In this document: piece after piece, positions 19,430 to 30,423 of the stretch
How positions within the stretch are numbered: the stretch's first letter is position 1
Layout: each line of letters starts with the position of its first letter
Assembly: GCA_002239025.1 (NCBI GenBank)
Contig: MPNM01000003.1
Coordinates: 39,959-103,958 of the forward strand
Length of the DNA: 64,000 nt
Origin: Chloroflexi bacterium bin125
GTDB lineage: Bacteria; Chloroflexota; Dehalococcoidia; Bin125
Direction: 5' to 3'
Made by a program: the position numbers and the translations under genes
The notes under the pieces: model-generated
The model's input: only the letters and a program-made list of their open reading frames with translations
Told to the model about the DNA's origin: nothing
Database searches by the model: none

Positions 19430-20197
19430 CTACTGGGCTTGCCAGGTTGGTGAACGCTTCTCGCGAAATGCCTGTGGACCTTCCTTCGCATCGTCGGTGA
19501 CACGGGCAACGCGGCGCATCGTCTCACCAAATCGGATCGCTTGCACGAAGGGCAACTCCTGACCTCGGTGCGCGACTTCCTTTGTCGCCCGCACGGCGAG
19601 CGGTGCACCCTTGCACAATCGCTGGGCCAGATTGTTGGCAGCCTGCATCAGGTCGTCGTGGGGCACGATTTCCCAGACCAGACCCATCTCCTTGGCCCGC
19701 CAGGCATCCACCCGGTCGCCGATCAGCAGCAACTCCATCGCGTAGTGCCAGGCAACGCGCTTGGGCATCCGAATCGAGCCCTGAATCGTCGGCACGCCGA
19801 TCTGCACTTCGGGGAATCCAAACTGTGCGCGGTCTGAGGCGATGACAAAATCACAGGCCGCCACGAGCGTCAGGCCGAAACCAAGCGCGAAGCCGTTGAC
19901 AGCGGCGATCGTCGGTTTCCAGATCTCCATGCCCGACTCCAACGAGGTCAGCGAAGGCACCTCCCAGAAGGTGTGTTCCTCGGGCGGAGCGGGCGAACGC
20001 AGATCGGCGCCGGCCGAGAACGCGCGTCCTGAGCCGGTGACGATGCCGACCCAGGCGTCATCGTCATTGCGGAATTCTTCCCAGGCGGCGTTGAGGTCGG
20101 AGCGCAACTCGTGGTTGATCGCATTCAACGCCTCAGGCCGGTTGTAGGTAATCGTGGCAATCCGGCCACTGCGTTCATAGGTAACGGTGTCGCCCAT
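19430..20197 (-). CDS. Enoyl-CoA hydratase/isomerase
   Basis: NRPEALNA, FSAGADL, KPTIAAVNG, FGFPEV. Confidence 0.95.
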   Translation of the reverse strand: MGDTVTYERSGRIATITYNRPEALNAINHELRSDLNAAWEEFRNDDDAWVGIVTGSGRAFSAGADLRSPAPPEEHTFWEVPSLTSLESGMEIWKPTIAAVNGFALGFGLTLVAACDFVIASDRAQFGFPEVQIGVPTIQGSIRMPKRVAWHYAMELLLIGDRVDAWRAKEMGLVWEIVPHDDLMQAANNLAQRLCKGAPLAVRATKEVAHRGQELPFVQAIRFGETMRRVARVTDDAKEGPQAFREKRSPTWQAQ

Positions 20198-20270
20198 TGG
20201 TGCCTCCTGGATTCATCGGCTGTGCAAGTCCGCTCCAGCCTATCTGCCGTGATCGTTAGGTCGTGTTCGC

Positions 20271-21437
20271 CTAGGCGAAGGGATTGAGTTCTTCGTTGAG
20301 CGTGTTGAGATAGTCCGAGTAGATGTATCGGCGATCCCGCCGGCGCCCCGTAACCTCCTCGACGATGCCGAGATTAGCAAGGTGTTGAACCGCGGAATCC
20401 GCGGCAGAGAACGAGAGTGTTGAGCGATCACGAACAGCAGAAATGGTCAGCAGCGGCCGCTGCACGAATTCATGATGTGCTCGGATCGCGGAGTTGGCTC
20501 GTCGTCCGGAGGCAGCAATGCGGGTTCGATCAGCCTCAAACAGCCTGGTCAACCGTTGCGCAGTTTCGACGCCGTGTTGGGCTGTCAAACGAACGCCTTC
20601 GAGGAAGAACTGCAGCCAGGCCTCCCAATCGCCATCGTCGCGTAGCTGATTGAGCAGGTCGTAATAGCTCGAGCGGAACTGTTTCAGATAGAGACTGAGA
20701 TACAAGATCGGTTCGCTCAACGCTCCTGACTGTACCAGGATGAACGCGATTAACATCCGGCCGACCCGCCCATTGCCATCCAGGAACGGGTGGATCGATT
20801 CAAACTGAGCGTGCGCCAGACCAGCCCGAACCAGTGACGGCAAGCCATCGTCCGCTGCATGAATGAATCGCTCCAGATCACTCATGCATGATTCGACCTG
20901 ATCGTGAGGCGGAGGGACGTAGAGTGCGACACCGGGACGTCTACCGCCGATCCAGTTCTGTGATCGACGAAACTCGCCGGGCTGCTTCTCGGAGCCGCGC
21001 CCGCTCTGAAGTAGCAGCCGATGCAACTCGCGCAGCAGCCGATTGCTCAGCGGGAAGTCATCGTCTCGCATCCGGTGTAGTCCATGGTCAAGGGCGGCGA
21101 CGTAGTTGGATACCTCGGTGACATCATCGATCAATGCGCCAGGTCTGTTGCCGAGTTCAAATTCCAACAGGTCGGAGAGCGAAGACTGCGTGCCTTCAAT
21201 TTCGGAAGACAACTGCGCTTCCCGCCGAACGTAGGAATAGATGAAGAGGTCGGGATCCGGCAGGTGTCGGGTCACCGCATCCAATGAACCCAGGGCGATG
21301 GTTGCCCGCTCAAGCGGCCGGTGCAGATTGGAGAAGTCGAGCGGTGGGACCGGTGGCATCGGCGCCGGTACGTACGCTCTGACCGGTTCTTCGGCGAAAA
21401 GAGTCGTTTCGAAATGGCCGGTCGTTGTTCGCTTCAC
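20271..21437 (-). CDS. Fic family protein with C-terminal wHTH
   Basis: HPFLDGNGRVGR active site; SSEIEG inhibitory motif; likely GTG start at 21437 because the upstream ORF extension is the repeat array. Confidence 0.9.
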   Translation of the reverse strand: MKRTTTGHFETTLFAEEPVRAYVPAPMPPVPPLDFSNLHRPLERATIALGSLDAVTRHLPDPDLFIYSYVRREAQLSSEIEGTQSSLSDLLEFELGNRPGALIDDVTEVSNYVAALDHGLHRMRDDDFPLSNRLLRELHRLLLQSGRGSEKQPGEFRRSQNWIGGRRPGVALYVPPPHDQVESCMSDLERFIHAADDGLPSLVRAGLAHAQFESIHPFLDGNGRVGRMLIAFILVQSGALSEPILYLSLYLKQFRSSYYDLLNQLRDDGDWEAWLQFFLEGVRLTAQHGVETAQRLTRLFEADRTRIAASGRRANSAIRAHHEFVQRPLLTISAVRDRSTLSFSAADSAVQHLANLGIVEEVTGRRRDRRYIYSDYLNTLNEELNPFA

Positions 21438-21483
21438 AAGAGGGTGCTCAGTCGTTGGCTGGCAGCTGGATTGGCGAGGATCG

Positions 21484-21684
21484 TTGTTCCGTAAGTCGGA
21501 ATAGCGCAGTACGTTATTGTGACTTCGGCATGAAGCCAGAATAGCATGGGCCGTTATTCTTGGAAGCGGAATAGTCAGCCGCATTATTCTGACTTCGGAC
21601 GTAAAGCGGAATAGCTTGACTACTTATCCCGGAAGTCAGAATAAGAATGATAGCTATTCTAGGTTGAGGTCAAAAGACGAATAA
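21484..21684. repeat. Phased array of GAATAR-N9-YTATTC palindromes upstream of fic
   Basis: GAATAR at 21499, 21539, 21569, 21609, 21639, 21679 (40/30/40/30/40 spacing); inverse half-site 15 bp after each of the first five. Confidence 0.85.
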
Positions 21685-21694
21685 CGAGGGAGCC

Positions 21695-22579
21695 TCAGCC
21701 GCTCTGCAGACCCTGCAGGTGCTTGCCTGAGAACTCTGCCAGGACGGCCTCTGCGTCCGACGCCGGGTGGAGATTGGCGATGGCGTGGTCGAATCCTCTT
21801 GACTTCATCTCGGCCAGGGTTTCGGCCGCCTCGTCGATCGTGTCCTCGGCGATCACCGTGATCCGATTAATCATCAGCTCGAGCGCCGACGAATCCCGAC
21901 CGTGTGACTCCGCCTCCGATTTCACCAGGGCCCAGTCTTCGTCGAGCGTGTCGAGCATCGCCGGGTTGGCCAGGTAACCGTCGGCGTAGCGGCCGGCTCT
22001 GCGGAGTTGGCGCGGGTTGTTACCGCCCAACAGAATCGGGACGCGGCGCGGCGGCTGTGGTCGGCAGTACCAGCCCTTCGTGTTGTAGAACTCGCCCTCG
22101 AACGATCCAATCTCGTTCTCCCAGAGGTCGCGCAGCACCTGCAGGTATTCGTCCATGCGGGCGCCTCGGCGATCGAAGGGCATCGACAGGGCTTCAAACT
22201 CTTCCTTCCACCAACCGACGCCGGCGCCGAGGATGAGTCGTCCGCCTGCGAGATGGTCAAGCGTCGCCATCATCTTGGCGTGCAACACCGGAGCGCGCAT
22301 CGGCGCGACCAGCACGGCGGTGCCCAGTTCGACCCGCTCCGTGACCGCGGCAGCGTAGGTCATCAGCGTTAGCGGCTCGAGGAATGGAGCTTCAGCCGGA
22401 ACCAGAAAGCGCCCATCCTCCGAGTAGGGGTAATCCGAGCCCTGGTCGGGCCGCAGCACGACATGGTCGAATGTCCAGAGCGAGTCGTAGCCGTTTGATT
22501 CCACGGACCGAGCCACACGCGCGATGTTCTCAGGGCTTGCAACTCCACCGACCTGTGGCAAGTAGATCCCGACTTTCAT
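21695..22579 (-). CDS. LLM-class F420-dependent oxidoreductase
   Basis: GYDSLWTFDH, LGTAVLV, GRLILGAGVGW. Confidence 0.9.
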   Translation of the reverse strand: MKVGIYLPQVGGVASPENIARVARSVESNGYDSLWTFDHVVLRPDQGSDYPYSEDGRFLVPAEAPFLEPLTLMTYAAAVTERVELGTAVLVAPMRAPVLHAKMMATLDHLAGGRLILGAGVGWWKEEFEALSMPFDRRGARMDEYLQVLRDLWENEIGSFEGEFYNTKGWYCRPQPPRRVPILLGGNNPRQLRRAGRYADGYLANPAMLDTLDEDWALVKSEAESHGRDSSALELMINRITVIAEDTIDEAAETLAEMKSRGFDHAIANLHPASDAEAVLAEFSGKHLQGLQSG

Positions 22580-28950: not shown

Positions 28951-29064
28951 TATCGGATTGACAGTTTCCGATAATGGATTGACACTTGCGGGCCGATGTT
29001 CGGGCAGCCTCGGCGATATCGCCTTACTATCGGATCAAGAGTATCCGATAGTTGACCGATAGTT
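28951..29064 (+). promoter_or_regulatory. Operator pair TATCGGA-N9-TCCGATA upstream of second fic
   Basis: Perfect-arm palindromes at 28951-28973 and 29028-29050; extra CCGATAGTT at 29056; TTGACA at 28958 and 28979. Confidence 0.75.
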
Positions 29065-29079
29065 CCGTGAGAGACATCG

Positions 29080-30423
29080 ATGGCCTTGCCCGATGTAGCG
29101 CCGCCGCTCAATGCTCTGCAAGCTGACTTTGACGCGCTCAGCTTTGATGAGCGAACGCGCCTGTTAGGTGGGCTTTCCCCGGTTGACTCCCAGGGCCGAT
29201 ACCTGCCGTGGGATGAAGTGCGCTACCGCCAACCTCCGGCCGGACTGACCCGGCGCTTGTGGTGGCTGAGCCTGTCCAGCGCCCGTCGCGCCGCTCAGCG
29301 TGAGCTGCCTTTGCACGCGCGCGGTGCCAAACCCTTCTGGTTCTGTCAAACCGGACCGCTGCCCGGGTACCTCCGCCGCTGGGACGCGGATGTTTCGGCG
29401 TACGACGTTCACCGCGATCTGGGTCTGACTGATGCGGAACGCAGTCAGCTACGCATCAGCTCCGAAATGTTCGAGTCGATCCAATCCAGCCGCCTGGAGG
29501 GCGCTAACACGACCCGCGAGGTTGCAGTCGAGATGCTTCGCGACGGACGTGTGCCTCGCGACTACAGCGAACGCATGATCGTGAACAACTACGCCGCGAT
29601 GCAGTTGATATCGCAATGGTCGCAGGACAGCGAACCGTTCGACCGTGAGCACATTCTGGAACTGCATCGGGTCGTCACCGACGGCACGCTGCGCGACCAC
29701 GACGTTGGCCGGTTGCAGACGCCGGCTGATCCTCGCGTGTACGTCGTCAGTCGTGGCGGCGAGGTCGTGCACGAACCGCCGCCCGCCTCCGAGTTACCTG
29801 AGCGAATCCGGCGACTCTGCGAGTTCGAAAACGAACGCACCGACTCGACCGACCCGCACCCGTTGATTCGAGCCATCCTGGTGCACTTCATGATCGGCTA
29901 CGACCACCCGTTCGCCGATGGCAACGGCCGGACAGCGCGGGCCCTGTTCTATTGGTCGCTGTTGCGATCGGGCCTGTGGCTAGCGCCATTCCTGCCGATC
30001 TCGCAGTTCTTGCTGACCGCGCCGGGACAATACTCGCGCGCATATCAGTATGTGCATGCCGACGGGAATGACGTGACATATTTCCTGCTGCACCAGTTGC
30101 AGGTGATCGAACGCGCCCGCCACCAACTCAACGATCATGTTTCCGGCATGCGGTCCTGGATGGTCCGAGCGCAACGAGTCACCGATGGCGAAGCAGGGCT
30201 GAATCAACGGCAGACCGACCTGCTGGCGGAGTTGTTGCCAGATCCCGACCGTTACATCACGATCGCCCGCCACCGGCGCGTCAACGGAGTGAGCTATGCC
30301 GTCGCCCATGGCGATCTGAATGATCTCGTCGAACGCGGGCTGCTCACGCGTGAGCGGATGGGCCGACGGCTGCAGTTCCGACCGGTGCCGGATCTCCAGG
30401 AACGACTGGATCCTGTCACATAG
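29080..30423 (+). CDS. Fic family protein with C-terminal wHTH
   Basis: HPFADGNGRTAR; SSRLEG inhibitory motif; C-terminal LNQRQ...A..DL..LV..GLL. Confidence 0.92.
   Translation: MALPDVAPPLNALQADFDALSFDERTRLLGGLSPVDSQGRYLPWDEVRYRQPPAGLTRRLWWLSLSSARRAAQRELPLHARGAKPFWFCQTGPLPGYLRRWDADVSAYDVHRDLGLTDAERSQLRISSEMFESIQSSRLEGANTTREVAVEMLRDGRVPRDYSERMIVNNYAAMQLISQWSQDSEPFDREHILELHRVVTDGTLRDHDVGRLQTPADPRVYVVSRGGEVVHEPPPASELPERIRRLCEFENERTDSTDPHPLIRAILVHFMIGYDHPFADGNGRTARALFYWSLLRSGLWLAPFLPISQFLLTAPGQYSRAYQYVHADGNDVTYFLLHQLQVIERARHQLNDHVSGMRSWMVRAQRVTDGEAGLNQRQTDLLAELLPDPDRYITIARHRRVNGVSYAVAHGDLNDLVERGLLTRERMGRRLQFRPVPDLQERLDPVT

Follow-up and report, generated by a model that had tools for sequence, protein, structure and literature searches.

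A phased array of inverted half-sites upstream of a SoFic-family Fic gene is probably its own multiplied operator

The Fic gene and its upstream array

We analysed a stretch of 64,000 nucleotides (the window) from Chloroflexi bacterium bin125 (contig MPNM01000003.1, positions 39,959 to 103,958), in which a gene for a Fic protein whose C-terminal region is of the winged helix-turn-helix (wHTH) type is preceded by a phased array of short inverted half-sites, and we argue that this array is probably the operator of the gene itself. The Fic gene was assigned to 20271..21437 on the minus strand (388 amino acids (aa) plus the stop codon, start GTG at 21437) from Pfam and PADLOC matches, homologue starts and Foldseek. 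The longest open reading frame (ORF), 20271-21584, runs into the array; homologues, among the at least 120 matches listed, are mostly 386-388 aa long, and the alignment of orthologues begins at the residue that GTG 21437 encodes, with ATG as the start codon in some. Because orthologues begin at this alignment column, GTG 21437 was taken as the true start of the Fic gene.

The protein matches the Pfam families Fic_N (4.2e-26) and Fic (4.8e-19). Its active-site motif HPFLDGNGRVGR (residues 216-227; 20757..20792, minus strand) follows the pattern HxFx(D/E)GNGRxxR, and an inhibitory motif (S/T)xxxE(G/N), here S77-S-E-I-E81-G82 (21192..21209, minus strand), is found in the translation N-terminal to the Fic core. 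An alignment of 41 homologues showed that the active-site residues from H216 to R227 are invariant, and so are S77, S78, I80, E81 and G82 of the inhibitory motif. Hence, because the catalytic motif is intact and an N-terminal inhibitory motif is present in the same chain, the protein is by its sequence a class II Fic AMP-transferase. The C-terminal wHTH region (20274..20510, minus strand) was delimited with an AF2 model and SoFic matches. The model (pLDDT 83.3) has helices at residues 314-326, 332-339 and 343-355 and wing strands at about 359-372, which places the wHTH at 314-372, and the predicted recognition helix FSAADSAVQHLAN occupies residues 343-355 (20373-20411, minus strand). Foldseek gave full-length matches of the model to the Mycobacterium marinum Fic protein (7cb8, TM 0.81) and to SoFic (TM 0.75-0.79). 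Moreover, residues 19-381 lie on positions 6-359 of 361 of the PADLOC profile SoFic PDLC03963 (E 3.9e-118), and phmmer against SoFic returned a full-length match (E about 1e-30, ∼24% identity). By these matches we classify the protein as a member of the SoFic family; its score is too low for a SoFic equivalog. In PADLOC, ‘SoFic’ is a single-gene anti-phage system. Judging from how its nearest relatives are named, the host belongs to an uncultured lineage of Chloroflexota.

The gap upstream of the Fic gene is 21438-21694 (257 bp), and 216 bp of it are taken up by the whole putative operator array (21469..21684, no strand assigned), which was delimited from the sequence, pattern counts and orthologous arrays in 9/9 close homologues. 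An earlier note on this DNA, made from the sequence alone, had described the array as filling the whole gap; that description applies to 216 of the 257 bp, the gap itself being redefined by the start at GTG 21437. The array has 13 hexamer positions, 11 good and two degenerate. Hexamers of the GAATAR/YTATTC type start, on the plus strand, at 21499, 21514, 21539, 21554, 21569, 21584, 21609, 21624 (TTATCC), 21639, 21654 and 21679, and the degenerate ones keep the same register, with GATTGG at 21469 and TTGTTC at 21484. From one start to the next the distances are 15, 15, 15 and 25 bp, a series that is passed through three times and gives a super-period of 70 bp.

Sequence reading and pattern search located five GAATAR-N9-YTATTC dyads, none assigned to a strand. 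Counted from the Fic gene, dyad 1 is GAATAG-cgcagtacg-TTATTG with flanks AAGTCG and TGACTT (21499..21519), dyad 2 is GAATAG-catgggccg-TTATTC (21539..21559), dyad 3 is GAATAG-tcagccgca-TTATTC with TGACTT as its right flank (21569..21589), dyad 4 is GAATAG-cttgactac-TTATCC with one mismatch (21609..21629), and dyad 5 is GAATAA-gaatgatag-CTATTC with AAGTCA as its left flank (21639..21659). Dyad starts are 40/30/40/30 bp apart, and a further 40 bp lead to the unstranded orphan half-site GAATAA (21679..21684), which is 19 nt from dyad 5, the spacing of a ‘loose junction’, and 10 bp past the stop codon of the upstream gene. These readings confirm the five dyads, their 9-nt cores and the 40/30/40/30/40 spacing of the earlier note. 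Its remark that the spacings are near multiples of a helical turn is true only approximately, since with 10.5 bp to the turn 30, 40 and 70 bp amount to 2.9, 3.8 and 6.7 turns. Nearest to the gene, 32-52 bp upstream of the GTG, lies the degenerate dyad GATTGG-N9-TTGTTC (21469..21489, read on the plus strand, no strand assigned); it occupies the position where most family members have their single good dyad, and orthologues keep a half-site [GA]AA[TC]AAC there. As the note had stated, the array is AT-rich (GC 0.455 at 21500-21699 versus 0.61-0.67 in the flanks).

The paired half-sites are private to the locus

Searching the window for GAATAR-N9-YTATT with at most one mismatch gave 10 matches, that is, five dyads on both strands, all of them at 21499-21659, where 0.30 were expected and none of 100 shuffles reached 10. 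Across the 3.68-Mb genome, all seven exact matches of this pattern fall in the array, and eight one-mismatch matches lie elsewhere versus 19 for a reversed-pattern control. The everted arrangement YTATTC-N19-GAATAR has three sites in the array and a single one-mismatch site elsewhere in the genome (control 10). Dyad and everted geometry are therefore private to this locus, and the refuting condition named in the earlier note, a genome-wide site of an unrelated regulator, does not apply. The single hexamer RGAATAR is not enriched across the window (11 occurrences where 6.6 are expected, a count that 10 of 100 shuffles reach as well), and it is only the clustering and pairing of hexamers that is significant. 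Tandem Repeats Finder reported no tandem repeat at the array, even at score 30; the program is blind to it because only the half-sites are alike between units.

The array is conserved in orthologues and its grammar recurs across phyla

All nine loci whose Fic protein is at least 90% identical carry the array; per locus there are 8-11 half-sites, with 2-4 everted pairs and 2-4 N9 dyads. Aligned column identity in these orthologues is 0.85 in the hexamers, 0.72 in the tight junctions, 0.57 in the N19 junctions and 0.48 in the N9 spacers; the hexamer columns are thus more conserved than the spacers, which indicates that selection acts on the half-sites. The array of the window is ∼41 bp shorter at its gene-proximal end than the other eight. 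Similar arrays are found in alleles of 72-74% identity; some consist of near-identical 70-bp tandem copies, which point to array growth by duplication.

To look further afield, one genome per species was scanned across many phyla, which gave 80 loci (79 usable) with Fic proteins of 48-63% identity, and the AATAR/YTATT pattern, defined on the clade of the window, was then tested on the 79 distant loci. Upstream of these genes, AATAR-N9-YTATT is present in 28, YTATT-N20-22-AATAR in 41, and one or the other in 47. The check for arrays upstream of homologues, which the earlier note had proposed, was thus answered in the affirmative at 9/9 close and 47/79 distant loci. Taking all 109 loci together, 42 have the N9 dyad and 56 the everted pair; coding controls of 900 nt gave none of either, and over 100 dinucleotide shuffles the mean numbers of loci were 0.2 and 0.42. 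Inverted spacing peaks at N9 alone (37 cases versus 0-2 at every other spacing from 0 to 30), everted spacing peaks at N21/22 (13 and 33) and at N11/12 (6 and 8), and like-oriented half-sites are 30/31 or 40/41 bp apart across loci. Single dyads in other phyla lie 32-54 bp before the start codon. The Fic gene is the only gene common to the distant loci, the most widespread neighbour family being present at 8/79.

We also examined 14 SoFic equivalogs (at least 550 bits) that belong to another class; an additional locus of an unpublished genome was excluded. Their 250-nt upstream stretches contain 59 TGTCGA/TCGACA half-sites versus four in coding DNA, and 11/14 have at least three. Spacings of 21 or 11 bp, and of 19 bp, give units 30 or 40 bp apart. 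Hence the equivalogs have phased half-site arrays with the same 30/40-bp periods as the array of the window, and differ from it in the half-site itself, TGTCGA there and GAATAR here. In Escherichia coli EC1515 (NZ_CP021844.1; L152, 403-830) ATGTCGA recurs at exactly 70 bp (633, 703 and 773) with TCGACAT between; the gene is annotated ‘fic: protein adenylyltransferase Fic’, and a TTTTTTAAACATAT box occurs three times upstream of it, the last copy overlapping the start codon. Because the same grammar of dyad and phasing recurs across phyla and in the equivalogs, the array of the window is, on this comparison of sequences, a large example of a family-wide operator architecture and not a peculiarity of one locus. 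Two of the matches at equivalog level, L146 and L147 (G110 and G197), have an in-frame stop codon (TGA and TAA) and two and zero upstream TGTCGA half-sites, respectively; they are possibly decaying copies.

Half-sites differ between alleles of a hypervariable cassette and between paralogues

The upstream neighbour of the Fic gene codes for a luciferase-like monooxygenase (LLM; 21695..22579, minus strand; Pfam Bac_luciferase 1.1e-60) and the downstream neighbour for an enoyl-CoA hydratase (ECH; 19430..20197, minus strand; Pfam ECH_1 4.2e-56), with a major facilitator superfamily (MFS) transporter and an amidohydrolase among the further neighbours. A Fic homologue of 48-97% identity is present in 32 of 36 same-genus genomes drawn from the relatives, and we compared 30 genus loci for the Fic gene and its flanks. 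In 28 of the 30 the Fic gene, itself 52-100% identical, lies between LLM (83-100% identical, in 28/30 loci) and ECH (92-100%, in 29/30); of the two exceptions, one comes from another family and one is a cut contig. At locus L035 LLM is 96% and ECH 94% identical, yet Fic is only 53%. LLM and ECH are adjacent in four genus genomes without Fic (L123-L126; genomes G004, G008, G013 and G011). At one of these empty sites, L125, the LLM stop codon is immediately followed by a single operator palindrome of the everted form, TTATCGCAAGTT-N7-AACTCGCGATAA, and at another, L126, a 41-residue remnant of the Fic C-terminus remains. Because the flanks are conserved, Fic is variable and two of the sites lacking Fic retain remnants, the Fic gene with its upstream DNA is a hypervariable cassette that can be replaced and deleted. 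A 53% allele (L031; G014:C45:1-2902) carries GCAATAG-type dyads at about -170, typical of a 74% allele (L018), and other palindromes nearer the gene; the distal dyads look like the remnant of the array of an earlier allele after cassette replacement.

The half-sites change with the allele. Distant alleles at the LLM-Fic-ECH locus (52-74% identity) have half-sites of the types GCAATAG, GTGATAA, GCGATAR and TTGAAT, and the GCGATAR-type operator reads CTATCGCGAGTT-N7-AACTCGCGATAG, twice. Some alleles at this locus have just two dyads. Moreover, the SoFic profile finds three further paralogues in the genome, each with different upstream palindromes. One of them lies in the window (29080-30423, plus strand, 447 aa; Pfam Fic and a weak MarR-like C-terminus), and its putative operator TATCGGA-N9-TCCGATA (28951-28973 and 29028-29050, plus strand), accompanied by a further GACCGATAG, has sites found nowhere else in the genome. 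The other two are L132 (G000:C51:386293-387312), with ACAAAGGATA-type dyads upstream, and L134 (G000:C1:69578-70522), with a CGACATGCGCA-TT-TGCGCATGTCG palindrome upstream. Four co-resident Fic-wHTH genes thus have four different putative operators, and their recognition helices differ as well.

The array as a probable multiplied autoregulatory operator

On the strength of these comparisons we consider it likely that the array is a multiplied autoregulatory operator of the SoFic-family Fic protein, bound by the winged helix of the Fic dimer itself. This agrees with the proposal of the earlier note that the wHTH of Fic recognises the array and controls its own gene, a proposal which is favoured by the arrays of homologues, by half-sites that are linked to the allele, by a motif private to the locus and by the precedents of CccR and SoFic. 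Because the N9 dyad is constant and the junction is two-valued, the dyad suggests itself as the site of one dimer, with the centres of its 12-mer half-sites 21 bp apart. Fic dimers, joined via the N-terminal helix as in SoFic, would bind each dyad with two winged helices, and about six dimers side by side would coat ∼200 bp and cooperatively repress the toxic gene. The bound array may also block read-through from LLM into Fic, since the LLM gene is co-oriented with the Fic gene. The array would have been multiplied by 70-bp tandem duplication, and the gene would be de-repressed by whatever reduces the amount of free or DNA-bound Fic.

One close precedent is SoFic (Shewanella oneidensis SO_4266), like EcSofic a class II Fic-wHTH AMP-transferase, which has the same order of N-terminal dimer helix, inhibitory motif, Fic core and C-terminal wHTH. 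According to a preprint, wild-type SoFic elutes together with the 300 bp of DNA upstream of its own gene, whereas a monomeric mutant does not; the wild type favours the first 100 bp and does not elute with a random fragment of matched composition, and the target of SoFic is reported to be EF-Tu (bioRxiv 10.64898/2026.07.09.737422). Another precedent is CccR of Yersinia pseudotuberculosis, described as a class II Fic protein with a C-terminal HTH that represses its own promoter; its DNase footprint near -35/-10 consists of two inverted boxes of 10 bp that lie 26 bp apart, and DNA binding requires the HTH half and dimerisation (PMC9755527). CccR thus works as we propose for the Fic protein of the window, by self-repression through inverted repeats, but it has one operator of two boxes in place of a phased array, and it is an effector secreted by the type VI secretion system, whereas no secretion context was seen at the Fic gene of the window. 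Its sequence match is confined to the Fic core (E 1.3e-13, residues 73-283), and the fold match of the model to it is weaker (PDB 7XUX, TM 0.53-0.56). The statement in the earlier note that the wHTH of many such enzymes is of unclear function is outdated.

A similar logic governs type II toxin-antitoxin modules, of which Phd/Doc, whose Doc toxin has the Fic fold, is an example of autoregulation. Such modules are described as holding the toxin down via their own DNA-binding part on promoter palindromes (PMC9755527). Unlike in these modules, inhibitor helix, toxin and DNA-binding domain are here united in one polypeptide, a gene for a separate antitoxin is absent, and the putative operator is expanded to about six dyads. 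In E. coli, EcSofic is reported to be followed by a small downstream antitoxin gene, AS1, of 47 aa (PMC12249575). An AS1-like gene downstream of the Fic gene of the window was ruled out, because the gap between ECH and the Fic stop codon is 73 bp and too short for it.

Several observations weigh against the array being the operator of its own gene, or against parts of this reading. As to the position of the promoter, a sigma-70 promoter scan of 20100-21900 found no site. The good dyads are 81-247 bp from the start codon, farther than in most relatives, and the usual position at -32 to -52 holds only the degenerate dyad. Alleles of 52-54% identity have the everted arrangement only, which bears on which pair of half-sites is held by one dimer. 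Neither AATAR pattern is present at 32 of the 79 distant loci; many of these have other palindromes, which were noted without systematic scoring. The protein scores 161.6 bits against the cut-off of 550 bits for the SoFic equivalog NCBIfam NF046030, and because this cut-off is missed, extrapolation from SoFic crosses subfamilies. The earlier note had also proposed that the motif should co-vary with the recognition helix. Among 62 loci with scorable sites, helix residue 344 does track the base before AATAR (S with G in 13/16, P with T in 25/33, H with C in 2/2 and A with A in 5/6), but this is not significant once relatedness is taken into account, since a tree built without the wHTH columns leaves only three and two independent pairs (sign-test median p 0.5 and 1), and the association between residue and base is no more than suggestive. 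Moreover, operator and gene are physically linked, and joint replacement is expected under any cis-acting function.

Alternative explanations

The alternative that survives best, which we regard as unlikely although it can coexist with autorepression, is that the main role of the array is not repression but that of a DNA scaffold which stores and gates the enzyme: dimers would be lined up on it, DNA binding would turn AMPylation or deAMPylation on or off, and loss of DNA or competition for it in phage attack would release or activate the toxin. The only precedent for DNA gating, which the earlier note had also suggested, is CbFic2 of Coxiella burnetii (PDB 8CIL), a Fic-wHTH dimer in which DNA binding is coupled to enzyme activity and whose activity is reported to be stimulated through DNA-induced dimerisation (PMC10628234). 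CbFic2 is a host-directed effector, the fold match of our model to it has a TM of 0.52, and it bound random DNA, without a known specific operator, so its effect needs no array. The protein of the window also matches the anti-phage SoFic profile, and published work presents Sofic as a toxin of anti-phage abortive infection whose toxicity requires dimerisation (PMC12249575). A dozen sites exceed the need of simple repression, and like defence genes the cassette is hypervariable and now and then deleted; on the other hand, one array per chromosome holds only about six dimers, and two dyads suffice for alleles at the same locus.

A bolder form of this idea, likewise unlikely, extends it to the family. 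Arrays of SoFic-family proteins would be platforms on which dimers of an abortive-infection enzyme are parked in a row and DNA binding sets the AMPylase state, the 30/40-bp spacing, which is shared from Gammaproteobacteria to Chloroflexota, would encode a Fic-DNA filament, and disruption at the time of phage infection, by DNA damage, supercoiling or phage decoys, would both de-repress the gene and activate the enzyme. If this were so, allele-specific half-sites would keep the four co-resident paralogues insulated from each other.

That the array is instead the operator of another regulator, encoded elsewhere and with Fic merely as its target, is very improbable. AT-rich palindromes are typical of many repressors, but this motif occurs nowhere else in the genome, it changes between alleles within one genus whose flanks are 83-100% identical, the grammar follows Fic across phyla without a shared neighbour, and the four paralogues of one genome have each a different private palindrome.

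Less probable still is that the array is transcribed and works as RNA, either as a row of hairpins in the 5′ leader or as the structured repeat RNA that the earlier note had offered as its alternative. The region does fold better than shuffled sequences (z -4.87 sense and -4.14 antisense), but both strands fold similarly well, as palindromic DNA would, and the folding score thus does not discriminate. No Rfam 15 family was matched (best 15 bits versus a gathering threshold of 163, and 14.6 versus 80). From Chloroflexota to other phyla it is the sequence of the arms (AATAR/YTATT) that is kept, and not their pairing by compensatory change, A-C and G-G mismatches are present within the arms of the array, the loops vary freely, and strict N9 spacing with 30/40-bp phasing is the geometry of protein on DNA.

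Finally, centromeres of the sopC and parC types are resembled by phased repeats that contain inverted half-sites, and the Fic cassette behaves as a replaceable unit, but the iteron- or centromere-like role suggested in the earlier note, in replication or partition of a mobile element, can practically be dismissed, because the monooxygenase, the enoyl-CoA hydratase, the MFS transporter and the amidohydrolase are the neighbours, genes for Rep, ParA/ParB or an integrase are absent from its vicinity, and the locus lies on the chromosome, with synteny across the genus (28/30 loci) and with Fic as the only cargo of the cassette.

Relation to published work and minor features of the array

Autoregulation by wHTH-Fic proteins is already published, the work so far describing a single palindrome in the case of CccR and a binding fragment of 100 bp in that of SoFic, and if autorepression alone is true of the array, it is an orderly extension of known biology. 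What appears to be new is that the array is both multiplied and phased, that the 30/40/70-bp rule is shared between phyla, and that the half-sites of a hypervariable cassette are specific to allele and paralogue; no description of phased arrays or of this rule was found in the literature searched, whose scope did not extend to subscription-only papers and closed supplements. These features bear on the open question of how single-gene Fic defence toxins such as SoFic stay silent and then fire. The operator grammar is precise and testable: the dyad is constant, units are spaced by 30 or 40 bp within a super-period of 70 bp, and the half-sites vary between alleles and paralogues. Since it is also present at the fic gene of E. 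coli, it can be tested in a laboratory host. Moreover, the alleles of the genus form a natural set of matched protein-operator pairs for the recognition code of the wHTH.

Two minor features lie in or beside the array. Small ORFs of 22-39 aa occur within it; as the spacers are free to vary from one orthologue to the next, these ORFs were judged from the sequence to be non-coding. The LLM stop codon is followed immediately by a weak terminator-like hairpin (21685-21697), at chance level in the scan, with a 5-bp stem and a T-rich tail that is the orphan half-site.

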